Shown here: positions 1-48,696 of the stretch, piece by piece | How the letters are laid out: each line of letters starts with the position of its first letter | Position numbering within the stretch: position 1 is the first letter of the stretch | Assembly (NCBI GenBank): GCA_036170435.1 | Contig: JAVHPF010000029.1 | Span: 1-48,696, forward strand | Direction: 5' to 3' | Origin: Patescibacteria group bacterium | GTDB taxonomy: Bacteria; Patescibacteriota; Gracilibacteria; BD1-5; UBA6164 | DNA: 48,696 bases | Notes under the pieces: model-generated | The model's database searches: none | Told to the model about the DNA's origin: nothing | What the model saw: only the letters and a program-made list of their open reading frames with translations | Made by a program: the position numbers and the translations under genes

Positions 1-161
1 ATAAAAAAACTTATAAAAATACAAATTTAAAATTTAGTAATTCAATATAAAATCTTTTAATTCTTCAGTTTTTGGCATTTTACTTAAATTAATTCTTTAA
101 TGGTTTGTATTTCAATATCAAGTAAGCTATCATAATTATATGCTTTTTCTGCCATATCTTC

Positions 162-1538
162 TAAAAATTTTTTATTTTCCAAAATATTTTCTTTTAGAGA
201 TGAAAAATATAAAAACATTCCTAATGCATCTCCAGAATCATAGATTGATTCTTCAAGGGATTCGTTTATTGAAATTAAGTAAGCCTCGAGTAAAGAGTTT
301 AATGCTTTCCTATTATTTTTTCATTCATAAAAATCTGCTTGTAATAAAAGATATTTATTATCTATTCATATAAGTTCTGAAAATATTTTATCCATCATTT
401 CAATATTGTTTTCATATAATTTCTTAATCAACAATAAAATTTTTTCTTTTAAATCTAAAAAATTATTTCAATTTCGGAATTGATACAAAATATTATAATA
501 ATCTGTAGCTTTATTAATATTTCTTTTTTCTACATATATTTCTAATAATTTATTTAATCAATAAATATAATTATCTACATCTCTATTTAAAAATGCTTTT
601 TCATATAGATTTTCGTAAGACTCTATTTTAGATTTATCTGTAAATTCTTTTTTAAATAAAAGCAAATTTCAAGAAGAATATAAATCTCCTAAATTTTTAT
701 AATAAGTATAATCTTTATTTACTTTTATATGTAATTGATATTTTTCCAAAGCATTAGAATAAAATGCTATTTCTTCGTAAAAAGCTCCTAATTCTCAAAT
801 AAGTTTAGTTTCTCATAAATCTATTGCATACTTATAAAGTTTTTCTATCTTTTCTTTATTTAATTCTATAAATTCTATTTTCTTATCTTTATTTTCTATA
901 TTTCCTAAATCAAGCAAAAATATATCTCTATGCAATTCAATATATTTAATCAAAGAAGTTTTTGATCATTTATTTATCCCTTCATTTAATATTTTTTCTG
1001 CTGTTTCTAAGTCTTGTTTATATAAATATGTATAATAACCATATTCTGCATAAGCATCCATATTATATTCACAAGCATTTTTACACTCTCAAAGTAAAAA
1101 GTCTACATTATTTTCATATGAAAATTCTCATCATTCATCAATAAGTAATCAAGATGTATATAAATTTAATATTTTTTCATAAATTAATCTATTTCAATAT
1201 TTTTTTGATTCATTAAAATATTCTAGAGTTTTATAATAATCTCCTAATTGCATAGTAAAATCACCTAATCTCTCATACAAGAAAGATTTATGAAAAGCTT
1301 TTAAATTATTTCAATAATCTATAGCTTCTTTTGCGATTTTATATCATCCATAATAATCCCCATTTTCTTCCATAATAGATAGAGATTGAGCTATTTCTTG
1401 TATTTTTATATCTGAATCGAGAATTTCATTAAAGTCTTCTGAAAAACAATTTTTTACATTGTCTATATCGTTTTGTCAGTTATTTTCTTCATTAAGCTGA
1501 TTTAATTCATCATGTCATAAAATTATTTCTTTATTCAT
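162..1538 (-). CDS. TPR/Sel1-like helical-repeat protein (458 aa, table 25)
   Basis: ATG at 1538, TAG at 162-164; every codon checked by position, with no in-frame TAA/TAG and many in-frame TGA. Repeated amphipathic motifs (GDYYGGYKIAKEAIDYGNNL, LGDFTMQLGDYYKTLEYFNES). No signal peptide. Confidence 0.6.
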
Positions 1539-1724
1539 AATTTTTTATTATAAATAATATAAGAGTTTTGTTTTAATTAATTTTGGGAATAAGTCAAGTT
1601 TTTAAAATTTAAAATAAGCTTTTTATGGCTTAGAAATTTAAATAATATTTGATTTTTTATTTTTTTTTCTTATAAATTAAATATAAATTATATTTTTTAT
1701 TTTAATTATTTTTATCGTTAGTTT

Positions 1725-2915
1725 ATGAAAAAAATTATCATTTTGCTTTTAAGCTTATTATCTCTATCTTTTTTCAGTTCTGCTTTAGCTTGAAGTCTAT
1801 GAATTTCACCTCTTAAATATGAGTATACAATTAATGCTTGAGATTCAAAATCTGGAGTAGTAAAAGTTACAAACAATAGTGATGTACCAATGACCTTATA
1901 TACTTCAAAAGAAGATTTTATAGCCTGAGATGATACCGGTACTCCAAAATTCGTAAAACCTGAAGACCAAGTTTCTCCAGAATTAAGTTTAGCTAATTGG
2001 CTTAAATTAGAAGAAGAAAATCTAACTTTAGCGCCAAAAGAAACAAGAGAAGTTAAATTTAAAATAACTGTTCCAAAAGATTGAGAACCTGGATGACATT
2101 ATGGTGCTGTATTTTTTTCTCCTTGAGTATCTGGACAATCACAAGTTTCAATAGTTCAAAGACTTTGAGTTTTATTACTTATAAATGTTCCTTGAAATGT
2201 TAAGGTAAGTTGATTTGTTGATAAATTTACAATCTGAGAAAAGAAAAATAACAAATTTGAAGAAAAAAATTCTTTTGCTAATTTTCCTATAAATTTTGAT
2301 TTATTATTCAAAAATGATTGAAATGTTCATTTGAAACCAACTTGAAAAATAGAAATTTTAGATGAAAGTAATATTCCTCTAAAAAATATATGAAAAGCTA
2401 CTTTAACTTCACCAGCTTGAGCTTATATTTGAGAAAAAATGGTAGATTACATACCACTTAATGATACACTTTGAAATGTTTTACCAAAATCTGAAAGAAA
2501 ATTTGAATCTTCTTGGGAATGATTTTGATATACTATTTTAAACGAAGACTGAACTAAGTCAGTTAAATTTAAAAGTCTTAGTGATTATTATGCTGATATA
2601 GCATCGGAAAAACAAGCTTATTTAAATTTTTGGGAACAAGTACATACAAGAACAGTTTCAAAAAATATGAAAGTTCTTATGACTCTTAGTTATGAAGGAA
2701 AAGATAAAGAAATTAAAGATTTTAAAGATGAGAAAACTATAAAAGTTTCATATAATGAAAAATATGTTTGAATAAATTATTATTTGATTTTTATAATAAT
2801 TTTATTAATATGAGCTCTTTTCTATTATTTCACTTCTATAGCTCCAAAAAATCGAGCTAAAAAAGAAGAAGAATTAAAGAAAAAAATAATGGAAGAATTA
2901 AAAAATCATAAATAA
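1725..2915 (+). CDS. DUF916/DUF3324-like (CscA-like) cell-surface protein with C-terminal membrane anchor (396 aa)
   Basis: Signal peptide MKKIIILLLSLLSLSFFSSALA. ISPLKYEYTINAGDSKSGVVKVTNNS...LAPKETREVKFKITVPKDGEPGGHYGAVFF matches the DUF916 logic. Second beta domain (RLGVLLLINVPGNVKVSG), then TM helix YYLIFIIILLIGALFYYF and a KKEEELKKK tail. TAA at 2913-2915. Confidence 0.6.
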
Positions 2916-2942
2916 ATTATCTAAATAATTTAAAATTAGAAA

Positions 2943-3368
2943 ATGAAAAAAATAATTTCAATTTTATCTCTTACAGCAATTTTCTTTTACTACTCAAATT
3001 TAACATTAGCTTTAAATTCGGTAGTTGTTTCTGCTGTAGTTTGAAATTTAAATCATTCTCCTGTTGTAATAAATATTGTTCCTAGTAATAATCCTAAACT
3101 ACTGAAAACAAATTCTCTTCAAAACTTTTCTCTTTATTTTAGGGATGATGAAAAAGATATAATTTATTACACAATTACTCCTAAAGATTGATATACAAAT
3201 CCTATAAATTGAATAATATATTCTTCCGATTATGATTCAACTTCTTGAGCTTATATAAATTTTGCATATTTAGCTCCTTCTATAAAAGCTTGAAATTCAA
3301 ATGTAAATATCATTTTAAATGATTGACCAAATATTGTATCTAAGGATATAAATTTATACATTTATTAA
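2943..3368 (+). CDS. small secreted protein, unknown function (141 aa)
   Basis: ATG 2943, TAA 3366-3368, six in-frame TGA. Signal peptide MKKIISILSLTAIFFYYSNLTLA. Same strand as and closely spaced with flanking surface genes. Confidence 0.55.
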
Positions 3369-3380
3369 AATCTAATAAGT

Positions 3381-4385
3381 ATGTCTAAATTTGCTAAAAT
3401 TTCTATTCTATTAATATCACTATTTTTCTTAGTTTTTACATCATTTTATGAACTAAGAAAAATAGATTTTTTTGATAGCGAAAATTTGTTTGATTTTGTA
3501 TGAAAAAATGATTCATTAAGTTGAACTACAACGAAAGATTTATTTTATAAAAAATGAGATTTATTAGAATATAATTTTTTTCTTCAAAAAGATTTTGAAT
3601 GAACAATTTCTATAAATACCGATAAATTAGATAAAATTATAAAAGATTATGATATTTACCTAAACGATGAAAAAATAAATAAAAATAGACTGAAAAATCT
3701 AAAAATAGATAGTTCGAAAATCCTCACATTTAAATGAAAAGCTATAAATAATAAAACAATTAATACAAAAGATAAGACAATAAGTGATTTAATTGATGTA
3801 GTTGTAGTAGATCAAAATGAAATATCTGATAAAAAAACAACAATAACTTGATCTTTAAATAACGTGAAATTATCTAGTTTAAATTTCAATTCAAATATAA
3901 ATAATTTACTTGTTATATCTTGAGATAATCTGGAAAATATACAATACGTAAATATTTGATGAAATTCATTTAATCCAAATTTCAATGATAAAAAAATTTA
4001 TATATGAATAGATAAAAATTCTTTTGCAGCATTAGATTATTTTGTATTTTTTCAACTTAAAAATAAGCAAATATTATCCTATCCTCAAAAAATAAGTTTT
4101 ACTTATGATTCAAATACATTAAATATTTCAGCTATAAGTCCTGCTTTAATTAAAAATGATATTGATAGATATATAGTAATTCAATGAAATAATTTATCAA
4201 AAGTTATAAGAGTTCAATTAAGTAATAATATAGTATTAAAAGAAACTGCTTTTAAAATAATTAATGATAATGTTATGACTATAAAAATTCCATCATGACT
4301 TAATCCTTGAAATTATTTTATAAATTTCATGTGAACTAAATGAATATTTGAATTAAAAAACTCTAAATTTACAATTACAAATTAA
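3381..4385 (+). CDS. secreted/anchored protein, possible Ig-like (IPT/TIG-type) repeats (334 aa)
   Basis: ATG 3381, TAA 4383-4385, frame checked. N-terminal hydrophobic helix ISILLISLFFLVFTSF. ISPALIKNDIDRYIVIQGNNLSKV resembles an IPT/TIG strand pattern (weak). Confidence 0.5.
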
Positions 4386-4408
4386 AATTATTTCTTAAAT
4401 TTAAAAAT

Positions 4409-7400
4409 ATGAAGAAAGTCACTAGTTTAATTTTGCTTATATCAATGCTTTTATCTAATGCTTTGTTTACTTACACAAATGCTACAGTTTTAGCATGACC
4501 TGATTTCAATGTAAAAATTTCATCAAATACTGATGCGACATATACAACAAATTTAAGTAATATTTGAATTTGAACCTCTTTAAGTTTCAAAAACGTTTCA
4601 GTTTTAGATAATTCTTCTTTAAATTGAACTTACAATATACACTTCCCTACTGGATTCACCTATAATTCTTATGATGCAAGTCAAAATACTTGTGGTTTTT
4701 CTCTAATATCTGCAACAAATTCAAATTTTAAATATTCTTTTTCAAATACATCAAATACTTGTGAATCAACAATTATTTTAAATTATACAACTAATTCAAA
4801 TGCTTCAATTTGAGTAAATAATATAAACATACTTGATGAAAATAATTCAATAGTACGAGATTTAAATGTAAATATAACTAGTCATAATTCTATTACAAAA
4901 GCTCAAACTTTAGACTTAAATTCTGATTGATATATTGATGGTTATAAATTAAATCTAGCAAATTCTAGTAATATTTGAAGTTTATCTTGATTACAAGTGG
5001 ACTGAGTTTCTGTTTGAAATATCTATTCCTCAGGAAGTCAATATATACTTCCTTTTACAGATAATATTTGGAATACTTGAGATTTACCACAAATCACATG
5101 ACTTTTTGATACTTTAAGTATTTGAAATAATGATATAAATGAAGAAGATTCAGCTAGACCTCAAATAATGAAAATAAATTCTACTGTACTTTCCACTCTA
5201 TGAGCTCAATCTTTAAATATTTGAACTTGAAATTTATTATTTGATATTTCTGAAAATTTAACTCCTAGTAGTAATCAATATTTTACTTTATTAAAAGGAA
5301 CTTGAACTATTGCTTGAACTTTTTCTTTTTTAAATAATAATTTAACGAAAGTTTATTTTGTACCATCAGTAAGTCTTTCAGCTTGAACTTATACATTAAG
5401 TGCAACTTCTGGAGCAAAAGACTGGTCATCTAATTGAAATATTATTGATGTAACTATTCCTAGTTTAATAGTAACTGATTCTATTTCACCAAACTGAATT
5501 GTGATTTGAACGAGTACTTGAATAAGTATAAATGATTGAGTAAGCTTAACTAACAATAATTATACTCAATTAACAATAGCAGCTACAGATGATGTTTGAG
5601 TTAGTCAAATGATGATTTCAAATGATTCTGGTTTTTCTAGTACTTCTTGGGAAACATATAATACAAGTAAATTAAACTGGTATTTATGAGCCGGAACTGG
5701 AATAAAAACAGTTTATGTAAAATTCAAAGATGAGGCATGAAATACAAGCGCAACTTATAGTGATAGTATAGAATATTGACCAACAAATAACTACATCAGT
5801 TTTAATAATATTGATTCAGTTTATACAAATAATTCAACTATAAGTCTTTCTTGAGGATGTAATTATATAAGTAATACTTGAGCAATTTTATCTAGCACTT
5901 TAGTTTGATATGTTAATTGAATTTCTATATGAAATATTACTTGTAATTCTCAAAAATGGTCTCATACTTTTAATCTAGCTGATAATACAACTAATTTAAT
6001 TAGATTAGAATATGATATAAATTCGTCTCTTAATAATGCTATAAATATAACTAGACCTATTCCGACTTGTTCAAGTCCAGCAAATGCGACTTTAGTTCCT
6101 GGAACAACTTATCCAACTTGTGACTTCACTTGTAATACCGGTTATACAAAACAATGATGAGCTTGTGTTGTAAAATCAGCTACAGTTACAACCGCTATTT
6201 CTAATTCTCGTACTTTTAGCTTTACTCCATTTACTCTATACTATTTAAATCCTATACAAAAAACATCTCTAGCTTTAGCTATAAGTAATTGAACTTCGAC
6301 TCTTACAAGTACTTTCACTTTAGATTCAGATTGAACAAGTGTTTCATTATCTAATTCGTCAGAAGCTATTTCTTGTAATTCTTGATATCAAGTTAGTTGA
6401 ACTTCTTGTATAGCAAAATCAATGAATATTACTAGTGCAACATATAATGCTCATAACTATAGTTTTACTCCATTTACTTTATATTATTATAGTCCTATAC
6501 AAAAAACTTCATTAGGATTAAATTTATCAAATGGTATTTATACTCTTACAACTACTTTTACTCTAGCTAGTAATTGAACAAGTGTTTCACTATCTAATTC
6601 TACTGAAAATCTGGTTTCTTGTAATTCTGGATATCATGTTAGTTGAAATTCTTGTATACAAGATTCTTCATGATGATGAGGAGGAGGTGGTGGTGGTTGA
6701 TGAGGTGGTGGATGAGCGATTACTCCGACTTGTACAAGTTCACAATTACAATGTAGTTCTTACAATAATTCTTATATTTGGACAAGGAAATCTGGAGTAA
6801 GTTGTACTTGATGAAATCTATGATTAGCTTGTATTCCAGCAACTACAAGTCAAACTGGAACAACTAATAATGGAACAATAAATTCTAACACATGAACTAC
6901 AAATAGTTCTACAGGAACAAATAACAATACTGATAATACTAATATTTGATGAAATCAATGATGAAATAGTTCAACTTGAACAAATACTCAAATTCCTGAA
7001 ATAATTGAAATAATAAAAACTGACTGAACTAAAATATATTTCACAGATATTGCGAATAATTTTGCAAAAAATTATATAGTTCAATTAGCATCAAGTGGAA
7101 TAGTAAATGGGTATTCTGATAATACTTTTAGACCAGGAAATAATACATCTAGAATAGAATTTCTAAAAATGCTTATGAAATGACTTGGAAAAGATTATTC
7201 AAGTTATATTTGAAAGAAAAATCCATTTTGGGACGTTCCGGATAATTCTTGGCAATCACCAATAGTAGCAAAAGCTATAGCTCTTGGAATAATTAGTCAA
7301 AATAGATATTTCTATCCAGATAAAACTATCTCTAGAGAAGAAGCTACAAAAATGTTAATAAAAGCATCTAAATTAAATTTATTAAATGTAAGTAAATCAT

Positions 7401-7570
7401 CTTTTACTGATGTAAATTGATGGTCTATGAATTATATAGAGACAGCCTATAAATCATGAATAACTAGCTGACAAAATATATGATGAAAACTTATATTCAG
7501 ACCTGGTGATAATATAACAAGAGCTGAAGTAACGAAGATAATAGTAAAAATTATAAGTATAGTTAAATAA
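4409..7570 (+). CDS. large cell-surface protein with Cys-rich modules, poly-Gly linker and three C-terminal SLH domains (1053 aa)
   Basis: Signal peptide MKKVTSLILLISMLLSNALFTYTNA. Duplicated ~80-aa modules ending CNSGYQVSGTSC / CNSGYHVSGNSC (about 6060-6660). 15-Gly linker at 6671-6715. SLH repeats from 7040: FTDIANNFAKNYIVQLASSGIVNGYSDNTFRPGNNTSRIEF, FWDVPDNSWQSPIVAKAIALGII, FTDVNGWSMNYIETAYKSGI...FRPGDNITRAEV. TAA 7568-7570. Confidence 0.8.
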
Positions 7571-7577
7571 AATAAAT

Positions 7578-7604
7578 AAAGCTTTCGAAATATACGAAAG
7601 CTTT
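7578..7604 (+). terminator. rho-independent terminator hairpin after the SLH gene
   Basis: Perfect 10-bp stem aaagctttcg / cgaaagcttt, 7-nt loop, followed by atttatt. Confidence 0.6.
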
Positions 7605-7631
7605 ATTTATTAAGTAAAATTTTTAGACAAT

Positions 7632-7666
7632 AAAAAACTCCAAAGAAAAATCTTTAGGAGTTTTTT
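7632..7666. terminator. bidirectional terminator hairpin between convergent genes
   Basis: aaaaaactcc...ggagtttttt with an inner aaaga/tcttt extension. A-run upstream and T-run downstream, so it can work on both strands. Confidence 0.6.
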
Positions 7667-7695
7667 ATTTATAAGAAATGCTATAAAAGCACAAA

Positions 7696-8358
7696 TTAGA
7701 ATGTACCTACAACTGTGAAAGTAAGAGTATCAGAGTAATCTGAAGCAGCAGCTGTTTCGTCAGCTGAAGTAGCAGCAACTGTAAAAGTTACATCATCATT
7801 TACAGCATCAGTTTTTTCTGGTCTAGTAGAAGAATAAATAGTAACAGCTTGGTTAACAGCATTAACTTCATGAGCCCCTGCACTATCAGTAGCAGAAAAA
7901 TCTGCAACACTAGAATCTGTTGGATTTGCAGTAGAAGCAAAAGTATATGATTCAGCTACACCGTCTTTATTAGCTATGTTAGCGTCATTATTAATAACAC
8001 CACTAGCTGTAATACTTCTTAAACCACCATTAGCAGAAGAAGCAGTAACGACTACACCATTAGTAGCATTAGTTCCTAATTCAATACCAAGATTTGCTGA
8101 TTTACCAGCAGTAGTCAAAGTACCTAATTCTAAACCAGTTCCTGAAATAGTCATATTTAAAACTGGAGAAACTGAAGCATTAACGATAACTGGAGTTAGA
8201 ACTCAAGTTGCAGTTCCTGGAAAATTACCATCCCAAGTTACACCTGTAGAAGTTCCACCAGTTATAGTACCAGTACCAATTTGTGCTGCCATAGCAACAT
8301 TCATAGCTAACATAGAAACTAGTCCTACAGAAGCCAAAGTTTTCTTAAATGTTTTCAT
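7696..8358 (-). CDS. abundant-type secreted Thr/Ala/Gly/Asn-rich surface subunit (220 aa)
   Basis: The two track ORFs (7696-8154, 8203-8445) are in one frame, joined by a single TGA (8203-8205). Start chosen at MKTFKKTLASVGLVSMLAMNVAMA (signal peptide). C-terminus DYSDTLTFTVVGTF resembles the terminal strand of SCPU/Csu- or WxL-type surface subunits (hypothesis). GC visibly higher than the flanks. Confidence 0.75.
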
Positions 8359-8587
8359 AAACAAAAACTTAAAAAATAAAAATACACGCGTGTCTTTATA
8401 TTGAAAAAGACATTTTACATTATCGCTGTTTTTTTTGAAAGTCAAATCAATCTTTACACTTTTTTATTTTAATGTGTAAAAAACATATTTAATATAAATT
8501 TAATAATAATTAAATAATGCTTTTACTTGATTTTTTTTATTTTTTAAGTATAGAAATATATGTAATAAAATATAATCATATAAAATC

Positions 8588-11500
8588 ATGAGAAAAATAT
8601 TTTCTTTTTTAACGCTTTTCTTTTTGATATCAAACATAGTTTGTTCAAATATTGTATACTGAAGTTCAGATATTAGTGTTACATCATTTACAACAAAAGT
8701 AAATTCTGGTAATGCTATCAGTTGAGATATAAAAGCTAATCCTTGAGATCAGCTTTCTATGCTTGTTTCATGAAATAATAATTCATCGACTATCCAAAAT
8801 AATGTGAAGCTAGAATTTATATTTTCAAATACTGTTGATTTTACAAATGATAATCCTGGTCAAACTAGTTCTTATGTAATGTGGTCACCAGTTAATTCAA
8901 ATATATCTCAAACTATTTTTGCCCCACCTTCACTTAATATAGCCCCAATTACTGCTTCATCTGTAAATTGAGATGCTTTAGATTTATATTATACAAAAAT
9001 AAGGGCAAATACTAATGCTAAAACTTATCTAACTACTATATGAGCTAGATTTTTAGCTGATTCTTATGTTTGAAATAGCCTTACTCGTAATATATATCTA
9101 AATGTAAGACCTCATATAACTAACTATTTTTTTTCTAAATCAGCTTTAGTTTGAAATTGAGTTGATTCAGTAGATTTAACATTGAAAGTAAAAGATTATA
9201 ATTGATGTGCAAATATTGCAGGATGAACTGTAACAGCTAATTTATCTAGTCTATGATTATCTAGTGCTGAACCTCTTTCTTATATTTCTTGTGATGCTGA
9301 TTGAAAAACTTGATTATTCAAAAAAACATGAATAGTAAGTCTTGCTTCTATTTGAGACAAAACTTTAACTTATTCTGATTTTTCAGCAAAAGATGCAGAT
9401 GGAAATTATAACACTCCAATAGATCCTAATACTACATTTGGTAATGAGGATAAAAAAACTAATTTAACTATTAGTATTGTAGCTCCAAATGCTCCTGTAC
9501 TTACTATATCTTCTATAAATCCAAGTATAGTTTCTAGCCAAGATTCAATACTTAATTTTTCAGCTACTCAAACTTGATCTTATAAAGTGGTATTAAACTG
9601 AGATTGAACTTGTTCTGCTTGAACGATTATTTCTGATTGGACTTCTTATAATTTGGAAAATTTAAATATAAATATAGTTAATTCCAATTTACAAAATTGA
9701 ACAAATACAATATATGCTTGTGTAAAAAATGCAACTTGAGATATATGAGCCGCAAATATATCTATAACAAAAGATACTTTAGCTCCTACTATATCTAATA
9801 TATCTATTTCGCCTTGAACTGTTACTACATCAAATGCTAATCTAAGTTTTGCTTGTAATGAAGATTGACAATATAAAGTAAATTATGCTTCTTTTGTTGG
9901 ATCTTATCAAACAGCTCTAACTAATCAAACAAATAATGTAAGTATATCTAATTCGTCATTATCTTTAGGAGCTAATAACATAACTATTTACTGTAAGGAT
10001 ACCGCTTGAAATGAAACTACATGAAATGCTAATATAAATAAAATTCAGCCAACTCCTGCTATGAGTTCTAGTTGAATGAGTATTAGTGATAATGATATTT
10101 GATGGGATTGAGTAGATTGAAGAGATTTAAAAGTAAATTGGGATACTTCAATTGGCTCTTCTTTTGCATGATTTGAATCTTATAGAATTTACGTATTACC
10201 TGAAAATACAGCTTTTTCTACTTGATATACTCAATTATGAATAGTTCCAAATTCTCGAATAAATACTTGGACTTGATCTAAAACTATAACAAATGATAGT
10301 GCTTGAAATCCTTTGGCTTGATGAAATTATAAAGCTTATGTTGCTATAATGTGAACTAGTTGAGAATTGTGAACTGTTGCAGCTAGTGCAACATGAACTC
10401 TTATATCTGATGTAGTTCCACATCCTTCAGTATTATCAGCGAGTTTTACATCTACAGGAAATTTACGAGTAAAATTTGATACAGCTCTAAAAACTGATTT
10501 ATCATCACATAATGCTTCTTTATTTGTTTTTCAAGCTTGATGAACGACATATACATGAACTAGCGTATCATCAATATCAAATGATACAATAAATATAAAT
10601 ATTCCTAATTTAACAAATACTGCTTCGACTTGAACACTTAGTGTTTTTACTTGAGCTGCCTGGTGAGTTCCAGTTGATGGTTCTTTTAACAATGCTAGTT
10701 CGTGAGTTTTAATAAGTGATGCTATATCTCCAAATATTATTAATTTTTCTACTTGAAGTACATCTTATTATTCAAATTTTTATTCTTGAACATTAGCTTT
10801 TAATTATAATATTTCTGAAAATCTAAAAGCTGGATGATTTACAAATATACAATTTACTAGAATTTGATGAAATACTGACATCTTAAAAACTTATTCTATT
10901 ACAAATACTTCTAATCTAACAACTTGATCTCATACTGAAAATATAGATTTAAATGCATTGTGACTTGTTTCGTGAGCTTATTATGAAGCTAGACTTATTG
11001 CTCAAGATTTAAATGGAAATACTAATACGAGTAATCCTATAAGTATAAAATTTGATAATGTTGGTCCTAGTATCGTTTCAATAAGTCCATTTTGAGCTCA
11101 AAAAGTATTAGGAATACTAAATCCTACTTTCACTTGGTTTTCTACTACTGATGATTCTTGAAATTGATCTGGAATAAAATGATATAAATTAAGAGTTTAT
11201 ACTTGAAATACAACTTATACTTCTTGGAAAACATGTACTTGAACTTATAGTGAATATAATATTACAAATTTATCAAATTTATCATACCAAACAACTTTAG
11301 CTAATTTATACAATTATGCTTGGGCTGTAACAGCTTATGATAATATGGAAAATATCTGAACAAGCTCTAGTTGTGATAATTTTTATACAAACAACTTAGT
11401 TCCTAGTTTTTCAAATTCTAGTATAACAGATACTGTTTTAAATAGTATAACTTATGCTAAATGATGAAATAATCTAGTTATTAAATCAACTATAACAAAT

Positions 11501-14500
11501 TCTAATTCTGCAAATATATACTTAAAAGCTGATAGTATAAAAGATTCTTCTTATTCAAATATATCTTGTGCTAGTCCAGTTTCTTGAGTAACTTGTTCTT
11601 ATAGTGCCAATATTGCTACATATACTTTTTCAGCTTGAGCTTTAGCTAGTTTATGAAGTTGAGTAAAACAAGTACAATTTACAGCAGCAAATACTTCAGG
11701 AATAAATACTTGAACAACTTTAGCTTCGATTACCCTTGATAATACATCTCCTAGTGTTGCTAGTGATACTCTAACTGCTCCTATTTCTTGAACTATAGGT
11801 TGAACTAGCACAAATATTACTTGGACTCCTAGTAAAATAAGTGACAATATGTGAGTTTCTTATATAAAATTAGAATATTCTTCTGATTGAGGTTCTAACT
11901 GGAATCTTATTTCAACGTGAGCAAATTCTTGAACTTATCCATGGAATATTACAAGTTTAACTTCTTGATCTAATTACGAAGTAAAAATAAGTGCTTACGA
12001 TGTTGTTTGACAATCAAATTCTGCTATTTGAGGAATATTTGCAATAGACAAAGTTCCACCAACTGTTCCATCAAATACCATAACTTATCCAAGTAATACT
12101 TGAATAAAATTAAAATGATGAGCAAGTGTAAATATAACTTGGAATACATGATGAATTACAGATAATATAGGGCTTGCTACAAACCCAATAACTTTATACT
12201 ATTCAATTGATTGATGAACTAATTATATTCAAATTGCTACAAATCTAGCAAATAATTGAACATATACTTGGACTGTTCCAAGTTTAGATAATACTACAAT
12301 GAAAATAAAATTAGAAGCAAGCGATAATGTTGCTAATAAATCTTTTGATATATCTGATAATAATTTTGAAATTGATTCTACTGTTCCAGTATTAACAGTA
12401 ACTGAAGCTTGAAATGGATGAAATACTCCTCAAACAAATAAATATGTAAATAATTCTTGAATAGACTTAACTGCTACTATTACAGATAAAAATTTATCAG
12501 GATGAAATGCTACTTATTCTTTTTATAATGCAACAACTAGTACTTATTGGAATTGAACTAGCTATGTGTGATCAGAAGTTTATAATGCATTAACAAATAT
12601 TAATGCTGCATCTTATAATTTATCAAATACTATAAATCCTAGTATAACAAATTGAAATACATATAAATTAAAACTTAGAGCAAGTGATATTGTTTGAAAT
12701 AATTATACAATACCTGAAATAACTTATCAATGAGATACTGTTAATCCTATTGTTTGATTTACAAATTGAGCTACTATTTATTCTAGTTGAACTGTTCTTA
12801 TTGCTTGAACATCTAGTGATGCGAGCTCTTGAGTAGGTGCTGTAAAATTAGAAATAACAAATTGATCTAATTATTTTGATTGAAGTTCATTTCAATGATC
12901 TTTAACACAACTTGCAACTACTACAAGTAATTCTTATGCTAATTGGAATTATAATTTCACTATTCCTGGAATAGTGGCAGATTGAACTAGTATAAATGTA
13001 AAATCTATTGCTTATGATAAAGCTTATAAAACTCCAAATTTTTGATCTGGTAATATAAGTGTAATAAAAGATACTACTTGACCTGTAATTTCAACTTGAG
13101 TTATAACATATCCTGCTGGATGAGAATCTTTTAGATGAGGACAAAACATAAATATAACTTGGAATACTTGAGCAATAAGTGATGCTGTTTCTTGAATAGC
13201 TGCAAATTCTATATCTTTAGAATATTATAACTGAACTGCTTGGCTTCCTTTAGCTAGTGGTCTTCCAAACTCTTGATCTTATAACTGGAATATTGCAACT
13301 ATTGATTATAATAATGCAAAAATAAGAATTACAGCTACTGATAATGTATGAATTTCCACTTCTCAATTAAGTGCATGATTTTTAGTTGATAGTCTACCTC
13401 CTCATGTAAGTAATGTGGAAACTATGGATAATGATGCAAATGGGCAAGTTGATTGATTACTTGTTAGTTTCAGTGAACCTATAAAAGATAATTCAATAAA
13501 TACATCTAAATTTTCTATCTCAAATTGAATAAATATAACTTGAACTGGTACAGCTTGAATTACAGATGATAACCAATTGACTTTATATTTTACAAACACT
13601 TGATCTAGTAATTTTACTCCGACTTTGACTTATACATCATGAGCTGTAACCGATTTTGTTGGAAATAATCTTATTGCCTGAAATATGATATCAGTAGATA
13701 AAGTTGTTCCTAGAGCACAAAGTGTTCAAATTTTTGATACTAACTCAAATTGAAAACTAGATAAAATAGAAGTGACTATGAGCGAACCTCTTACGGCAAG
13801 TTCTGTAAATAATTGATGGACTATTAATAATGCTTATAATTGAATGAGTGTATCTTCAGTAAATACTTCATCAAATAAAATAAATTTAATACTAAATGAA
13901 TCTAGTGCATTTAATACAGCAACTGGCAATCTAGCACTTAGTTTAAATAATACAATTTATACTGATTTAGCTTGAAATTTAGCTTGAAATATAACATCTA
14001 CTCCTATAGAAGATAAAGCTAGTCCAGTTTTACTTAGTTCTAGTACAAGTGATAATAATTCAAATTATAAAGTTGATAAAGTAAATTTATTATTTAGTGA
14101 AAATATAGCAAATATAAATCCTAGTAATTTAAGTTTATCTTATTTATCTACTTGATCTAGTATATCTAGTTTAACTTGAACTGGAACTTCTACATTAAGT
14201 TTAAATTTAGCTGAAACTAGTAGTGATAATGATTCATCTTATAAACCAAATGTTATTTATAGTTGAACTTCATTAAAAGATTCATCAAATAATACTACGG
14301 CTAATTTCAACCTAGCAGTAACAGATTGAGTAAGCCCTAAAATAATTTCTAGAGAAACTCTTGATTCAAATAATAATGGGAAAGCTGATGCAGTTAAAAT
14401 AAATTTTAGTGAAAATATAAACTGAAATATTTCATCTACTCTTATTTGAGTGAATTCATATAACATAGCATCTTATGCTACTTGATCTAATTATATAATT

Positions 14501-29859: not shown

Positions 29860-29864
29860 GAAAA

Positions 29865-29910: not shown

Positions 29911-29911
29911 T

Positions 29912-30024: not shown

Positions 30025-30052
30025 CTAAAATTTATAATTTTAACAAAAACTT

Positions 30053-31329: not shown

Positions 31330-31356
31330 AATGATTTAATCTTAAGTTTAAATTAA

Positions 31357-31630: not shown

Positions 31631-31679
31631 TAACTATTAAAAAAGACTAAATTTAAAATTTAGTCTTTTTTAATAGTTA
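31631..31679. terminator. bidirectional terminator, 23-bp perfect hairpin
   Basis: taactattaaaaaagactaaatt / aatttagtcttttttaatagtta with a 3-nt loop, between convergent genes. It contains the epimerase stop codon. Confidence 0.8.
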
Positions 31680-32563: not shown

Positions 32564-33637
32564 ATGACAATTAATAAAAGTATGAAAAAATTACCTCTAA
32601 ATCATAATTTTTTGAAGCCTGAAATAATTAAGAAATTAATACGAGCACATAAAGCCCTTGCCGAACTTAATTGATTATCTCATAAAATTCCAAATCAAAA
32701 TATTTTGATAAATTCTCTTTCTTTACAAGAAGCAAAAGACAGTAGTGAAATAGAGAATATAATAACAACTCATGATGAACTTTATAAGTCCCAAATTGAT
32801 AAAAGTTTTCTATCAACTCAAACAAAAGAAGTTGCAAATTATAAAGAAGCTTTACTTTTGGGTTTTGATATAGTCAAAAAAAATAAACTGCTTTTAAATA
32901 GAGATATTTTAGAAATTCAAGAAATTTTAGAAAAAAATGATGCAGGATTTAGAACTCAAATTTGAACAAAACTAAAAAATGATCAAACTGGAGAAACTAT
33001 ATATACTCCGCCTCAAAATATAGAAGAAATAAAAGATTTAATGACTAATTTAGAAAAATATATAAATGAAGATTTAGAAGATATTGATCCACTTATTAAA
33101 ATGGCAATAATTCACCATCAATTTGAATCAATTCACCCATTTTATGACTGAAATTGAAGAACTTGAAGAATTATAAATATTTTATATTTAGTGAAAAATG
33201 ATTTACTTAATATGCCGATTTTATATCTTAGTAATTATATTATTAAACATAAATCAGATTATTATAGATTATTACAAGAAGTAAGAGAAAAATGAAATTG
33301 GGATGAATGGATTTTGTATATGCTTGATGCAATAGAAAAAACTTCACTTGATACTATGGAGATGATAAAATCTATTTGGGATTTGATGTGAAAAACAAAA
33401 AAATCCATGAAAGAAAAGATTCCAAAAACATATTCTAAAGATTTACTTGAAATAATTTTTTCCCATCCATATACAAAAATAGATTTTTTAGTTGCTGGAA
33501 TGTGAATTACTAGGAAGACTTCAGCAAAATATTTACAAGAAATGGTAGATAATTGATATATGATAGTAATTCAAATATGAAAACATAAATATTTTGTAAA
33601 TATAGAATTATTTGAAAGATTAAAAAAATGATTATAA
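32564..33637 (+). CDS. fic: class II Fic-family AMP-transferase with Fic_N region and C-terminal wHTH-like tail (357 aa)
   Basis: Fic motif HPFYDGNGRTGR at 33134-33169, with all three Gly encoded by TGA. N-terminal inhibitory motif SSEIEN, i.e. (S/T)xxxE(G/N). In frame with track ORF 32705-32965. TAA 33635-33637. Confidence 0.9.
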
Positions 33638-33821: not shown

Positions 33822-34547
33822 TTATTTAAAAAGTCTCCGTTTGAATAAAGTTAAAATTGCTTTAACTCAGTCTTTCCAATTTATTTTCTTACCTTCTTTG
33901 AAATTACGAGCAGTATAATTTATAGGTTCTTCTCAATATTTAAATCATTTTTTTAAAAGTAAAACTGTTATTGCAGGTTCCCATTCAAATCAATTTTCTT
34001 TTGGTAAAATAAGTAAATCTCTTAATTCTTTTTTATATAATTTATAGCAAGTTGGTTCATCTGTAACTTTCGTAAAAGTCAAAATTGAAGTCAAAATTGA
34101 AACAACAAGTCATCAAAATAAAAAAGTTTTTGTTGAATATGTGTTTTTAAATTCATCTAATCCTAATATTCTAGAACCATATAAAAAATCTAATTGTCTA
34201 GATTCTATTTTTTCTAGTAAATTTTTATAATCTGATGGAGTATATTCATTATCTGCATCCTGAATAATAAAATAATCTCAAGTTGCTTTTTTAAATCATT
34301 CTTTACAAGCATATCATTTTCAATAATTTCTTCAGTATTCGATATAATTAAACTCTGCCTTTTCTGAATTATTTTTGATATAATCAAGTATAATTTTCTC
34401 ACTATTATCAGAGCTTCAATCATTTACTAAAATAATTTCTTTAGTAAAATTTAAAGACAATAAATCAACAGAAAGAACTTTATCCAAAGTTCCTTCTATT
34501 GTTTTTTCTTCATTCAAAAATGGTATTATTATTGATAGTTTTTTCAT
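33822..34547 (-). CDS. GT2-family glycosyltransferase (241 aa), last gene of the glycan operon
   Basis: MKKLSIIIPFLNEEKTI...ILVNDGSSDNS...YFIIQDADNEY. ATG 34547, TAA 33822-33824, ends checked. Confidence 0.8.
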
Positions 34548-37988: not shown

Positions 37989-38657
37989 TTAGATAAAGTT
38001 TTTAGCATTTTCTCATTCATTTAAGAGTAAATCAATAATACTCATATAAGCTATAAACTCTCACCATAATTGAGTATAAACTGGATGGTGATAATCTTGA
38101 TAATGTAATTTTATTAAAGCATTGCTAAATTTATTTTCTTCTATATAACTTTTTCATCCAGCTCATGAAATATATTCATCAGCTCAAACTAAATTGCAAA
38201 TATCAACTAAAGCATCTGTACTTTTTGAATAAATTTTTTCTATAATATCTGATAAAACTACAAATCTTGTTTTAATTCATAGTATTTCTGATATTTTTTT
38301 TATTGTATTTATATTAAATTCAGAAATATTATCTCAATCATAACTATAAATTTCTCTTATTTTATCAATATATTCATTATAATATTTAGCTTTTTTATAA
38401 TTTCGTTCAATACTTCGTAAATGTTTTTTTAAAATTTTATTATCAAATTTAACATCTTTAATTTCTTGTCAAAGACTAACTGAAACAGGTAAACTAAGTA
38501 AAATTTCTCAATTTGATCATTTTATCTTATTTCTATTATGATAATCTCATTTTGTATATTGTGCAATATCGTAAAAAACAAATATATCTGATTCTTTTAT
38601 TTTATTAAATAATCATAAATAAGGTATATAGTTTGGTTGGTGTATAGAACAAATCAT
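37989..38657 (-). CDS. WbqC-family protein (222 aa)
   Basis: MICSIHQPNYIPYLGLFNKIKESDIFVFYDIAQYTKGDYHNRNKIK is the family N-terminal signature. TAA 37989-37991. Confidence 0.75.
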
Positions 38658-39269: not shown

Positions 39270-40844
39270 TTAAATATTTTTATAAAAAATAAGCATTTCC
39301 TTGTTATCTAATATATATTCATTTAAAGATTCTATTTTATTTTTTCTATTAAGAAAATCTTTAATATATTCTTCATCTTTAACTTCAGTATATCAATTTT
39401 TTAAATAATATCAATCTACTCATAAATTACTATGGGTAACTAATTCTAAAACTTCAACTCCTGAATTATACTTTAAGTTATCAGAAAAATAATTTATTAA
39501 TTTATTTCATAATCAAATTCATTGATAATCTTTAGATATAGCAAACCTATTTATATATCAATATTTTCAATCCGAATATCCTATAATAAATCAGATTACT
39601 TTATCTTCTTTTAATAATAAATAGCTACAAGAAAACTTATTTTTAAATTTATATAAAAATTCTTTTTCTCACCGCATTCATACATCTAAAAAATTTTCTT
39701 TTTCAATTATTTCTAAATCATCTAATTGTTTCTTTGTTATTTTTTTGGAAAAACAAACAATTTTTATATCATTTTTGATTATACTAATATCATTTTTTAA
39801 TTGTTTAGCAATATTTTCAGGACTGTGATTTTTAAGAACAATTTCCATATTTTTTGAAACAAAATCATTATATTTATTTTTATCACTTAATATAGAAAAA
39901 GTTATACTTTCTAAATTTTTTAAATCTGTTTTTATTTCATATTTATCATAAGAAATAATAGCAGTTCAACAAGCTGTTGCTTCTAATTCAACCAAACTCA
40001 TCATTCAAAGAGTTTCATGAAAATGTCAAAGTACTATATCTGATCATCTATACATTTCTGAAAGTTCTTGAGCTGTTTTAAAATTATGCCAAATATATGT
40101 TTCTGAATCAGTTAATTTTTTTTCATAATATGAAGCTAATGGATCTCATCAATTTGGATATTTTATAAGATGTAGAGTTGCTTCCGGATATTTAGATTTT
40201 ATTTTTTTAAATAAATCTATTCAAAATTTTGGATTTTTAAAACTATGTAATCTAGTTGGATAAAATATAACAGGATCTCATTTTAAATCAGTACTTTTTC
40301 AAATAGGATTAAATAGTTGTATATTTATAGCATTTGGTAACCATTTGGCATCTAATCTGATTTTTTTAGCAAATTCCAACATATTAGGAGTTGAAACATA
40401 ATAAATATCAAATTTTTTTATATTATATCTAATCAATCTTCATAATAAAAATTCTACAATACTTGCTATTACTTTTTTTATGCCTGCAAAATGTTTTAAT
40501 GTATCTTGAAAATTTAATCAAAAATGAAATCAATGACTTTCTCATATCAATACTTGGTTTTTATATTTTTTTGCATTCAAAAAATTTTCCCATGTATTTA
40601 TTTGAATAATTTTATATTTTCTTAAATCTCATTTATTTTTTTTAATAAGAAAAAATAAAAAATTAGTTACTATATCTAATCTATGAGAACAAGGGAAAAA
40701 ATAAATCATTTTATAATTTAGTAAATTCTCAATATTTTTTAAAATAGAAACAAATCAATTAACTAAAAATAAATTATTTCACTTATTTTCATCATTTATT
40801 ACATTATTCCTAAAATAATTATAATTCTCTTTTAATATTTTCAT
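39270..40844 (-). CDS. GT4 glycosyltransferase fused to a C-terminal GNAT acetyltransferase domain (524 aa)
   Basis: GT-B C-terminal signature HETLGMMSLVELEATACGTAIISYD. After about residue 380, a GNAT motif A (NRFAISKDYQGIGLGNKLINYF). TAA 39270-39272. Confidence 0.7.
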
Positions 40845-40886: not shown

Positions 40887-41948
40887 TTAAATAACAAAAT
40901 TTTCTTGCATTTTTTTAATAAGAAAATCATAATTTAATTTTTCATCAATATATTTTCTTCACTCTCTGATGTATTCTTCTTTTTCTTCTGGATGTTCTAT
41001 ATACCAAATAATATTCTCTGCTAATTTTTTATAATTACCTACTTCATGTAATAAAGTCTTACCATTTAATACCTCTCACCTAAATGATGAAATATCTGGT
41101 AAACATACAGCATTTCAAAGTAAAATTGCATCATAAACAGCTAAACATTGTCATTCTTGCAAAGAACTATTTATATAAATTGAAGTTGGTAATTTTAAGG
41201 TTTTTAAATTATTTCTAGGTCAATACATTATAAAATTATCATAAATTCATAAATCTTTTAATTCTTCTTCAAAAGTCATTCATCTACTACTAATAAATTC
41301 ATCAATTTTTCATACTTGATGAATTTTTATATTTGGATATTTTTTAATTGTAATTTTCAAAGCATTCAACATTATCTCTGGTCATTTTTTAGGCAAAACA
41401 TGTCAAAGCATTAAAATATCATTTCATTTTGGAATATTTTCTACAAAATTTTTCTTTGAAACAACTAATGGAACAACAATTCATTTATTCTTAAAACCTT
41501 CTTTTTCAAGCCAATTTTTATCATGTTCATTTATAACACGAATTTTTGTAAAAAATGGATAAAATAATTTAACTATAAATCTTTTTATTTTATAATGAGA
41601 TGAATACTCTGTAGCAAATACTGATTCATGTCAAAAAAATATAGTTTTTTTTGTAATAAATCACATTAATAAAGATGGAATAATAAATGTATTAACATAA
41701 ACTATTGCATCTTTTGAGTTTTTCCACATGTATACTAAGGCTTGAAAAATTCATTCAACGTAAGTTACTTTGAATCTAGGATCAAAATTTGGATCATCCT
41801 CTATTTTTAATTCTTTTCAATAAGATACAATTTCAACTTCATACCCTAATTCTTGCATAGCCCGACAAGGCATAAAATGATAATGAGACTCCTTTTCTAA
41901 AAGAAATAATGTTGGGTGATATTGTACAAAATATATAAACTTTTTCAT
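40887..41948 (-). CDS. GT4-family glycosyltransferase (353 aa)
   Basis: ...INSSLQEGQCLAVYDAILLGNAVCLPDISSFRGEVLNGKTLL. ATG 41948, TAA 40887-40889. Confidence 0.7.
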
Positions 41949-45687: not shown

Positions 45688-46293
45688 TTATAATATATCT
45701 TTAAAAATTCAAGAATGAACTTCATTTGCATTATTAACAACTATTACTTTTGCACCAGATTTAGTTCATGCTTCAATACCATGAGGAGAATCTTCTATAA
45801 CAATAGTTTCATTTGGTTTTATTCAAAGTTTTTCCATTGCAAGTTCATAAATTTGTGGAGAAGGTTTAGATTCTTTTACATCCTCATTTGATAAAATTAA
45901 ATCAAAATAATCCAAAATCATAGCTTTATTTAACATCATTTCAATACTATTTTTAATAGAATTTGAACAACAAGCTATTTTTAATCATTTATCTTTAAGT
46001 TTTTTTAACATTACTTGTTTTGAAAAATCAACTGTACTATTATTATAAATAGCGTCTACAGTATATTGCTGTTTCATTTGGTTAATAAAATTATGTAAAC
46101 TTTCAGGAAGTCATTTTTCTTCAGTTAATCTTTTAAGTTTTACATGAGTTGGAAGTCAATCATAATAATTTTCATGTTCTTGACGAGTAATTGTAAATCC
46201 AAAAAGTCATAAAGCTTTATTTAAAGCTTCATAATGCCACTCTCTAGCGTCAATTAACACTCAATCCATATCAAAAAGTACTGCTTTTATCAT
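45688..46293 (-). CDS. HAD-superfamily hydrolase (beta-phosphoglucomutase-like subfamily) (201 aa)
   Basis: Motif I AVLFDMDGVLID (Gly is the TGA at 46261-46263), ...CSNS..., IVIEDSPHGIEAG. Confidence 0.8.
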
Positions 46294-46307: not shown

Positions 46308-46853
46308 TTAAATTATTTCCTTAATAACTCTTGCTGGATTTCATATAGCAACAACTCAACTTGGAATATCTTTAGTTACTATACTTCCTGCTCATATTAC
46401 ACTATTATCTCAAATAGTTACTCATTTAAGTATTATTGTCCTAGCTCATATCCAAACATTATTTCAAATAATTATTGGTAAAGATTTTCATTCATTGGAA
46501 AACATATAAATTTCTCATTTTTTGAATGAATGGTCTCAAGATTGTAAAAAAGCTCAAGGTCAAAACATAACATTATTTCATATGCTTATTTTACTATTTT
46601 TTGGAGTTCAAGCATTTATACTACCAAATTCATTTATAAAAACATTATTTCATATTTCTATATTTCAAGTCATTCTACAATACTTTCAAATTTGGAAATT
46701 ATTTCAAATTTTTATCATTTTTGCATATCTTATTTTTGGAATATGCCAAATAATTGATTTAGAAAATAATCCAATTTTTACTCATATTAATTTCAAAAAT
46801 AATATTTTATAAAATGTTAATATTCTATAAATATTTCAAATAATTATATCCAT
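46308..46853 (-). CDS. hexapeptide-repeat (LbH) sugar O-acetyltransferase (181 aa)
   Basis: [74 protein letters not shown]. 20 of its 23 Gly codons are TGA. All codons checked. Ends in TAA TAA TAA. Confidence 0.85.
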
Positions 46854-46858
46854 AATAA

Positions 46859-47488
46859 CTAAATTTTTTTTATTATATAAACAACTGTATTTCAAAAATA
46901 TTTATTTTTAAATGGTAATTCCCATCATAAAAAAGGAACCTTCCAAACACTATAATAAGTTTTTATAAGTTCTATTTTTCAGTCATAATAAGCTAAAATT
47001 GATGGTAGGTAAAATGGATTAATATGAGCTGGAAATTCATGAAAAATTCAATCGCTCTTTAAAAAACCTATAAGATTTCAAGTAAGAAAAAATAATATTT
47101 TTCCAATTATTGTATTTATATTAGGAGTCGAAATCATTATATATCATCATTTTTTAGTACATCTAAGTATTTCATTTAATAGTAAGTATTGATTTTCTAC
47201 ATGTTCTATAACTTCTAAATTTGTTACAAAATCAAATTCTTCATCTTTATATGGTAAAGCCTTAGTAAAGTCTGATTTTATAAAATTATCGAATTCTATA
47301 TCAGGAGTCAAAAATCCATCTATTAAATGAATGTTTTTATATCCATTATCTAATAATCTTTTTCACCAAGCTCCAGAACCTGATCATACATCTAAAATTT
47401 TATCATCAATTTTTGAATATTTTTTAAATATATCAAATAAAAATGGATGCATATTTCAATATGAATACTCTTGTAAAAATTCTGCCAT
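46859..47488 (-). CDS. class I SAM-dependent methyltransferase (209 aa)
   Basis: KILDVGSGSGAWGKRLLDNGY (motif I), FDFVTNLEVIEHVENQYLLLNEILRCTKKGGYIMISTPN. TAG 46859-46861. Confidence 0.75.
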
Positions 47489-47492
47489 TTTT

Positions 47493-48584
47493 TTAAATTA
47501 AATTATAAACTTTCTTCACAACTCACTCCCATCATAATTCCCTATCACTAAACTCTCTTCATTTCTTTCACATTTCAATTGTTTTTTCCTTATTTTCAAG
47601 CATTAATATAATGTTTTCTGCTAGTTTTGCAATATTATTTTTTTCTACTATTAATCAAGTTAAATTATTTTCTACAACTGATGGAAGTGCTCAAACATTT
47701 GTTATAATAACTGGTTTAGAAAAAGCATAAGCTACGGGAATAACTCAACTTCAAGTTGCATCATGATATGGTAAAATAAGAAATCCTGATTTTTCAAAAA
47801 ATTTGTAAGCTTCTTCTGGCTCAATATTGTAGTTAAATATTTCTAAATTATCTTTTAGTTTTTCTATATATTCTCTATATTTTGATAAATCTCCAGGTCA
47901 GGCAATAATTAGCTTAAAATCTGGTATTTTTTCTTTAACTATAAACAAACTATTTAGTAATAAATCAAGTCATTTATAATCAACTATTCTACCAAAAAAT
48001 AGAAATGTATTTTTTTCTACTTTTCATCATTTAGAAAAAACATCTTTGAAAAAATTATAATTTCCGTGAACTATAGAAATAACTTTATTTTCTGAAATAT
48101 TATATTTTTCTATTAGTTCATTTCTAAGTTTTTCTCAGTGAACAAATAATTTATCAGCTAAATCTCTCAAAACTTGATTTGTTTTTTCTGCTATTTTTCA
48201 TTGCAAACTAGCTCATTCTCAAGTATGTAAAGTTGGATCGTGCTGTGTTACATATATTTTATATCCTAACATTTTAAATAATTTAGAATAAGCAATATAC
48301 CAAGGATGATTATCAAGAAAATGAATAATATCTGGCTTAAATCTAATTATCTTAAACAAAAAAATTATATGATTCCAAAAAGATAAAGTATCAAATATGA
48401 AACTTTTAGGATTTGGATTAGTTCTTATCTTTAAAAAACCTATATTTTCATTATATAGGTTTTCATTGTAATAATCAGCTATTGTGACTTTTATATTCGC
48501 AATTTTACTAAGTTCATTGCAAAATTGAGATGAATAATGTAACATTCCTCATCTAGGAGTTAGGTTAAAAACTAGTACTTTCAT
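47493..48584 (-). CDS. GT4-family glycosyltransferase (363 aa)
   Basis: FFGRIVDYKGLDLLL...PYHDATGSGVIPVAYAFSKPVIITNVGALPSVVENNLTGLIV. In frame with track ORF 48219-48545. Confidence 0.8.
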
Positions 48585-48589
48585 ATTTT

Positions 48590-48696
48590 TTATTTAATCA
48601 AATTATAAACTTCTCCAAATTCTCTAAATGTTTGTTCCCAAGCAAAAAGTGAAACTGGGATTTTTGATGAAGTCTTAGAGCTAAGTGCTGACACTG
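48590..48696 (-). CDS. 3' end of another glycosyltransferase-like gene (partial, runs off the window)
   Basis: ...KIPVSLFAWEQTFREFGEVYNLIK* is a typical GT4 C-terminal tail. TAA 48590-48592, 5 nt before the next start. Confidence 0.5.
   Translation of the reverse strand, partial: VSALSSKTSSKIPVSLFAWEQTFREFGEVYNLIK

Follow-up and report, generated by a model that had tools for sequence, protein, structure and literature searches.

Genes and Reading Frames of the Window

The window, by which we mean the whole 48,696-bp stretch of contig JAVHPF010000029.1 that was analyzed, was examined for the meaning of its in-frame UGA codons and of its CGG and CGA codons. An earlier note on this DNA had claimed that UGA encodes glycine throughout, as in translation table 25, and is neither a stop codon nor a tryptophan codon. 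When the window was translated with table 11, only 11 open reading frames (ORFs) of at least 100 aa were found, which covered 8.6% of its length and the longest of which was 176 aa, in keeping with the description in that note of a nearly empty six-frame track. When TAA and TAG were taken as the only stops, a greedy choice of non-overlapping ORFs of at least 60 aa gave 39 genes that occupied 93% of the window; a single tRNA gene and a pair of Rhs end fragments were also present. The longest ORF under these conditions measured 2,527 codons between stops and 2,523 aa when counted from its first ATG. The contiguity of the genes was therefore as had been described, and their number was not: the 39 genes replace an estimate of about 45, the difference being accounted for by small ORFs and the two Rhs end fragments. 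Tables 4 and 25 yielded the same ORF structure. The window as a whole and the genes that are important for the reading of UGA and CGG are as follows:

1–48696, whole window: 39 genes, 93% coding, 23.6% G+C, 775 in-frame TGA codons, genes ending in TAA (35) or TAG (4)
22361–28120, minus strand: g15, Rhs repeat protein, 1,919 aa, 101 TGA, YDxx[TGA]N repeats, three CGG
28453–29859, plus strand: g16, UDP-glucose 6-dehydrogenase (Ugd), 468 aa, 19 in-frame TGA
31660–32469, minus strand: g20, aldose-1-epimerase-like protein, 269 aa, 9 TGA, CGG at codon 227
32564–33637, plus strand: g21, Fic adenylyltransferase of the SoFic type, 357 aa, 11 TGA
37989–38657, minus strand: g27, WbqC-family protein, 222 aa, 12 TGA, 2 CGA
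39270–40844, minus strand: g29, GT1-GNAT fusion, 524 aa, 27 TGA, CGG at codon 391
45688–46293, minus strand: g36, HAD-family phosphatase, 201 aa, 8 TGA
46308–46853, minus strand: g37, left-handed beta-helix acetyltransferase, 181 aa, TGA as 20 of its 23 Gly codons

Every gene ended in TAA or TAG, as had been claimed. Across the 15,106 codons of the 39 genes there was not one in-frame TAA or TAG, compared with 1,328 and 1,303 in the other two frames, and this absence, alongside 775 TGA, is far beyond chance. We consider it very nearly certain that UGA is an ordinary glycine sense codon in this organism and that UAA and UAG are its sole terminators, with CGG probably encoding tryptophan and CGA arginine.

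TGA at Conserved Glycine Positions

The motifs in which the earlier note had placed TGA lay exactly where it had put them in all the cases that were checked. The Rossmann motif of Ugd (28471–28506) reads GGT ACT GGA TAT GTA TGA CTA GTT AGT TGA GCC TGT, that is, GTGYV[TGA]LVS[TGA]AC, with TGA at two glycine positions, and the catalytic motif of the same protein, GIGYG[TGA]SCFPKD, has TGA at 29245–29247. Solved Ugd structures have glycine at the TGA positions of both motifs. In a tally against PDB 3gg2, 4a7p, and 2y0e, counted by eye from printed alignments, 38 of 55 residues at Ugd TGA columns were glycine, 10 were alanine and none was tryptophan, so that glycine prevailed when the residues at these columns were tabulated. 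The Fic motif at 33134–33169 (CAC CCA TTT TAT GAC TGA AAT TGA AGA ACT TGA AGA) translates as HPFYDGNGRTGR, in which all three glycines are encoded by TGA, and the corresponding motif of SoFic (PDB 9tc4), HPFIDGNGRTGR, has G at each of the three positions. Motif I of the g36 phosphatase, DMD[TGA]VLID, has its TGA at 46261–46263 on the minus strand, and all four HAD homologs from the PDB (3kbb, 3e58, 6h8y, and 6hdi) have G there. Tryptophan was aligned to TGA at no Ugd or Fic position and at a single, variable HAD position in one of the four homologs. In addition, the TGA codons of g37 form I[TGA]NN repeats and the motif LDV[TGA]SGSG is present in g38.

The retention of TGG as a tryptophan codon, also claimed previously, was evident from TGG codons on conserved Trp columns of Ugd (W344 and W418), g20 (W81 and W225), and Fic (W246 and W249), the last two of which align with W and W of SoFic. 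A 15-residue glycine tract could be read directly from the sequence in g05, a surface protein with SLH domains:

6671–6715, plus strand: poly-Gly tract in g05, codons TGA TGA TGA GGA GGA GGT GGT GGT GGT TGA TGA GGT GGT GGA TGA

TGA and GGN codons thus interleave within a single glycine homopolymer.

Composition and Profile Scores

GGN, TGA, and TGG codons made up 1.80%, 5.13%, and 0.73% of all codons, respectively. GGN and TGA together give a glycine content of 6.9%, which is a normal composition, and 74% of the Gly codons are then TGA, which makes it the dominant one. The alternative sum of TGG and TGA gives a tryptophan content of 5.9% and leaves glycine at 1.8%; such a tryptophan content is absurd.

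The standard against which the residue at TGA could be measured had to be chosen with care. The best 120 Ugd homologs (P0001–P0120) were tried as an independent standard and found unfit, as all appear to be from UGA-recoded relatives whose proteins carry W at TGA or, in the NCBI records, were translated with table 25; approximately 100 of them are abnormally rich in tryptophan and have W at invariant Gly columns. Because of this, PDB chains and Pfam families were used. Pfam scans were run on ten proteins in which TGA was translated as G, as a neutral X, or as W, and in all 15 families the bit scores fell from G through X to W. The hidden Markov model comparison across readings that the earlier note had proposed therefore favored glycine, with tryptophan scoring worse than no residue assignment at all. 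The scores included the following:

RHS_repeat (g15): G 294.3, X 144.6, W 111.4 bits
WbqC (g27): G 244.6, X 216.9, W 200.7 bits
UDPG_MGDP_dh_N (g16): G 225.4, X 204.4, W 197.1 bits
Ugd central domain (g16): G 116.0, X 110.3, W 108.5 bits
Ugd C domain (g16): G 101.4, X 92.8, W 88.5 bits
HAD_2 (g36): G 126.8, X 113.1, W 107.5 bits
Fic domain (g21): G 71.1, X 59.3, W 56.1 bits
Hexapep (g37): G 68.9, X 32.2, W 31.3 bits

All 20 residues were then compared at the 39 TGA codons of g16, g27, and g36, which were concatenated and scored as the sum of bits over five non-overlapping families. Glycine ranked first (801.3 bits), 53 bits ahead of alanine (748.1) and followed further by serine (743.3) and asparagine (742.1); tryptophan was 18th of 20 (689.6) and phenylalanine last (682.9). 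A profile for g20 was built locally from 100 homologs that were no more than 43% identical and had a normal content of Trp and Gly; these were taken to use the standard code. Reading TGA as G in this profile gave 252.9 bits, as A 235.3, and as W 222.0, and the two TGG codons, which served as a positive control, scored best as W. At g20 TGA columns 20, 60, and 74, glycine was present in 96–101 of 101 homologs, and at column 21 in 86 of 101. Composition, the 15 families, the 20-residue scan, the solved structures, and the comparison with a close relative described below were all in agreement with the claim that TGA is glycine rather than a stop or tryptophan.

Relatives and Codon Exchange

The 120 best Ugd matches include many NCBI proteins assigned to 'Candidatus Gracilibacteria bacterium', at up to 90% identity, and the top matches are such proteins at 82–90%. 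The closest genome found was the Gracilibacteria metagenome-assembled genome (MAG) GCA_028713225.1, whose 89-kb contig JAQTOS010000007.1 (locus L001) is syntenic with the window and encodes proteins 80–98% identical to those of the window. These best matches and this synteny substantiate the earlier proposal of a source of the Gracilibacteria/Absconditabacteria type. We take the window to be chromosomal DNA from a low-G+C member of the UGA-recoded Gracilibacteria (BD1-5, class JAEDAM01 in GTDB usage).

Codons were compared with those of L001 in six orthologous genes. A window TGA was matched by TGA in 172 cases, by GGN in 28, and by TGG in none, and a window TGG was matched by TGG in 32 of 33 cases. 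The absence of exchange between TGA and TGG disfavors table 4, since under that code it would be the commonest synonymous change.

The assignment of UGA to glycine is NCBI table 25, which has been known in this lineage since 2013, and it is not a new code. Its origin is credited to Campbell et al. 2013 and Rinke et al. 2013 in PMC8629427. Proteomics of BD1-5 (Hanke et al. 2014; PMC4032931) identified 97 peptides unique to UGA as Gly and three unique to UGA as Trp. The window resembles the table 25 systems in having UGA as Gly, UAA and UAG as its only stops, UGG as Trp, a low G+C content, and syntenic relatives among the Gracilibacteria. It does not differ from table 25 over UGA, but it does hold evidence that CGG is not Arg.

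CGG and CGA Codons

Seven CGG codons (4.6 per 10,000) were found in the genes of the window:

31789–31791, minus strand: CGG in g20
39672–39674, minus strand: CGG in g29
27956–27958, 27680–27682, and 27554–27556, minus strand: three CGG in g15
33837–33839 and 41862–41864: two further CGG

The g20 codon (codon 227) falls in a column where 99 of 101 homologs, as well as PDB 3k25, have W, and in the g20 profile it scored 261.4 bits as W and 252.9 bits as R, a gain of 8.5 for W. At the DNA level, the window, L001, and L085 carry CGG at this column and L082, L083, and L084 carry TGG, all six being UGA-recoded; in L085 the g20 site is the sole CGG among 3,311 codons. The g29 codon (codon 391) is at the Trp position of a RimI-type 'PWS' motif. 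The NCBIfam rimI model TIGR01575 gave g29 49.2 bits with CGG as W, 45.5 as R, and 44.6 as X (3.7 in favor of W over R), and a second rimI model, NF007025, matched g29 only when CGG was read as W. A PDB search with the GNAT domain of g29 left the CGG position unaligned, and a homology search with the concatenated N-terminus of g15, g29, g30, and g22 matched only the window's own protein.

Another relative, L087 (22.7% G+C; Ugd 69% identical to that of the window), has two of its five CGG codons on invariant Trp positions, namely Ugd W344 and the W of the RmlB motif RDWLYVEDH, a position that is W in PDB 8du1, 6bi4, and 2hun. By comparison, the window Ugd has 16 Arg positions (two AGG and presumably 14 AGA), and not one coincides with a Trp-conserved column.

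The 16 CGA codons of the window behave as Arg. Translating the two CGA of g27 as R, X, and W gave WbqC scores of 244.6, 242.7, and 239.5 bits, the corresponding scores for Fic_N were 99.1, 97.8, and 96.4 bits, and one AGA/CGA exchange was seen between the window and L001. CGA as Trp was considered for the window and ruled out, as Arg scored better in both WbqC and Fic_N and there was no Trp signal at the two g20 CGA sites.

Reassignment of these codons in related genomes has been reported from Codetta (Shulgina and Eddy 2021; PMC8629427): CGA and CGG as Trp in Absconditabacteria and CGG as Trp in some Gracilibacteria. The Codetta table gives UGA as Gly, CGA as Arg, and CGG as Trp for UBA5194, and CGG as Trp with no call for CGA for UBA6489, and it has no CGG call for most low-G+C BD1-5 genomes; for low-G+C BD1-5 it also lists a tRNA(CCG) with Trp identity and the absence of a tRNA(UCG) (PMC8629427). 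The window is like these low-G+C BD1-5 genomes in its low G+C content, in having AGA as its leading Arg codon, in a CGG frequency below 7 per 10,000, in a CGA that behaves as Arg, and in a CGG that is probably Trp. It is unlike the Absconditabacterales, in which CGA is Trp (and CGG also, in one genome), in that its CGA behaves as Arg. Compared with the Codetta genomes, the window contributes two Trp-favoring CGG sites without the tRNA. On the strength of these alignments, we think it probable that the organism reads CGG as Trp and CGA as Arg, which would go beyond table 25. With regard to the earlier note, its table 25 stands for UGA as Gly and is probably not the whole code, since CGG looks like Trp.

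We know of no NCBI translation table that combines UGA as Gly, CGG as Trp, and CGA as Arg.

As a separate observation, the Ugd of another relative (L086 7402–8727; 43% G+C; Ugd 56% identical to that of the window) has CGA on two Trp columns, W418, which is invariant, and W445, which is well conserved. This pattern resembles an Absconditabacteria-type CGA as Trp.

Decoding Machinery

The hallmarks of the recoded lineages are a tRNA-Gly(UCA) and the loss of release factor 2 (RF2) (PMC8629427; gTranslate preprint). By analogy with these lineages, a tRNA-Gly with anticodon UCA would read UGA in the organism, and RF2, which terminates at UGA, would have been lost. Strong A+T mutation pressure would then turn GGA into TGA freely, because the change would be synonymous. 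The sole tRNA gene of the window was identified by both ARAGORN and Rfam:

28258–28332, minus strand: tRNA-Gln(UUG), Rfam RF00005, 67.3 bits

The same tRNA-Gln(UUG) is at the same place in L001. Scanning the window and six loci from relatives for tRNA genes gave nothing besides tRNA-Gln(UUG), and the Rfam scan of the window had no match except the one tRNA.

A pattern scan of metagenomes was made for tRNA(UCA) genes with a Gly-type acceptor stem (elements G1:C72, C2:G71, G3:C70, and U73). Among the 120 loci listed, there were at least four tRNA(UCA) genes, at least three of which had a Gly-type acceptor stem, and none could be linked to the organism. The class-I tRNA(UCA) genes at L149 172–245, L153 1–74, and L128 76–146 have the acceptor GCG...CGC-U and are on contigs of 32–62% G+C; the neighbors of the L149 gene, the only candidate whose flanks were inspected, are without in-frame TGA. 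These tRNAs may be glycine-inserting opal suppressors from outside the recoded clade.

Alternative Readings

The standard code is the default assumption and has nothing further in its favor. Under it, the TGA triplets would be real stops, and the window would be a graveyard of pseudogenes, a product of sequencing errors or a set of selenocysteine sites. We regard this as vanishingly improbable, given 775 in-frame TGA beside no TAA or TAG, read-through proteins that cover their families from end to end (for example, profile positions 1–187 of 187 for Ugd and 1–216 of 218 for WbqC), and 172 TGA positions shared with L001; for selenocysteine in particular, the Rfam scan of the window found no SECIS-like (selenocysteine insertion sequence) RNA. 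Table 4, the Mycoplasma/Spiroplasma code in which UGA is tryptophan, is used by the Mycoplasmatales and some insect endosymbionts. Like the code of the window, it has UGA as a sense codon, it occurs at low G+C and it yields an identical ORF map. Moreover, public pipelines translated the contig in this way, and the tryptophan-rich Ugd relatives noted above would appear to agree with it. The window differs from table 4 in the amino acid itself, Gly and not Trp; UGA makes up 5.1% of codons, far above any plausible Trp content, and glycine would be left at 1.8%. In addition, W fell below the neutral X in every family and near the bottom of the residue scan, the structures placed Trp at TGA only at the one variable HAD position, and exchange between TGA and TGG with L001 was zero, all of which make a tryptophan reading extremely improbable. 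The remaining possibility for UGA is that the window belongs not to a bacterial chromosome but to a phage or other mobile element whose stop-codon recoding is its own. Recoded phages exist, phages of Gracilibacteria have been described (PMC10746230), and Rhs, Fic, and toxin-antitoxin genes are present in the window. We nevertheless judge this very improbable, as the gene content is cellular (surface proteins, a polysaccharide/glycosylation cluster, Ugd, and tRNA-Gln), four Pfam scans covering 38 of the 39 genes (all but g07) identified no capsid, terminase or portal family, the gene order is syntenic with the 89-kb Gracilibacteria MAG contig, and codon usage is uniform across the window.

A more serious competitor concerns CGG only. 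If the organism used table 25 exactly, CGG would still be Arg and its occurrences at Trp columns would be tolerated Trp-to-Arg replacements, each requiring only one transition from TGG to CGG. The small number of scorable sites, the preference of one of these for Arg, and the lack of a Codetta call for CGG in most low-G+C BD1-5 genomes (PMC8629427) are compatible with this, and we hold it to be a possible, if rather unlikely, account. It is difficult to reconcile with the near invariance of Trp at the g20 column in homologs and in PDB 3k25, with the alternation of CGG and TGG at that column within the recoded clade, with the location of the only L085 CGG at that very site, and with the two CGG of L087 that occupy invariant Trp positions in Ugd and RmlB. 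The 0 of 16 Arg positions of the window Ugd on Trp-conserved columns also speaks against it.

Several observations weigh against the reading of UGA as Gly and CGG as Trp that we prefer. Neither the window nor the flanking sequence retrieved for its relatives contained a tRNA(UCA) or a release-factor gene; the meaning of the codon is demonstrated here, and the decoding machinery would be that known from the lineage only. A minority of TGA codons are on columns with A, S, E, R, or L in homologs, which is expected because such positions are variable. For CGG, only three of the seven sites could be scored, two favoring W and one R, and the other four are in regions that no profile covers; the site preferring R is g22 codon 237, and the preference is mild (39.8 versus 38.7 bits, a difference of 1.1). 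In one instance, g20 codon 192, a TGA appeared under a conserved Trp, which was rejected as a gap artifact of MAFFT, as a shift of three columns places it at the G of a conserved 'NG'.

Stored Proteins and Consequences of the Code

In the public protein collection, g20 is stored exactly as its translation with TGA as W (P0121), and g15 likewise (P0239). The coding-density heuristic cannot separate table 25 from table 4 (gTranslate preprint), and the Trp-rich stored proteins match this blindness. Reading UGA as Gly is a precondition for interpreting anything else in the window: under table 11 its genes shatter, and under table 4 some 5% of residues become Trp, including catalytic and nucleotide-binding glycines. 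Mistranslations of this kind depress homology scores, and structure prediction would be misled by them. If CGG is indeed Trp, every table 25 translation of such genomes would have Arg in place of Trp at a few conserved sites, and the window and its relatives would give a fine-grained picture of the reassignment of a sense codon spreading within low-G+C BD1-5. The CGG sites add DNA-checked support at the level of single sites to a reassignment that Codetta called in only two BD1-5 genomes.

Other Features of the Window

One gene avoids TGA, and it is the only gene to do so:

7696–8358, minus strand: g06, secreted protein rich in Ala, Thr, and Gly, 220 aa, no Pfam match

Its Gly codons are GGT (15), GGA (5), GGG (1), and TGA (1), compared with 74% TGA in the window (Fisher exact test, p = 5e-12). 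Its codon usage is native, since its G+C content at third codon positions is 0.091 versus 0.098 elsewhere. TGA seems to be avoided in this gene, which is probably highly expressed. A weaker version of the same bias was seen in g17 (30053–31009). The g06 gene is inside a surface-protein cluster (1725–16159) that also contains g02, with a WxL-interacting peptidoglycan-binding domain, g05, whose 1,053 aa include three SLH domains, and the 2,523-aa g07.

The Rhs locus (19547–28120, minus strand) consists of the full-length g15 followed by two orphan C-terminal cassettes, with the small ORFs g14, g12, and g11 in between:

21228–21983, minus strand: orphan Rhs C-terminal cassette
19547–20082, minus strand: orphan Rhs C-terminal cassette with a broken frame

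Judged by this arrangement, the locus is a classical array of putative orphan toxin tips and immunity genes.

Short palindromic elements of more than 50% G+C were observed at 23508–23556, 23806–23863, 24124–24223, and 29847–30030 of the window and at 11345–11361 of L001. Three of these GC-rich palindromes are in frame within the Rhs gene and encode ..PHPNPLL..GEG.KG.., and a palindrome cluster occupies the spacer after Ugd. The window has two copies of the 17-mer AGAGGGTTAGGGTGAGG, and L001 has one, in the same spacer.

Lastly, eight Logan contigs (L088–L095, from runs SRR25490519–SRR25490543) have an identical g20, and all end approximately 130 nt past the g20 stop. These ends, at about position 31530 of the window, adjoin a YafQ-like toxin-antitoxin pair, g18/g19 (31111–31627), and their shared position hints at strain variation or a repeat.

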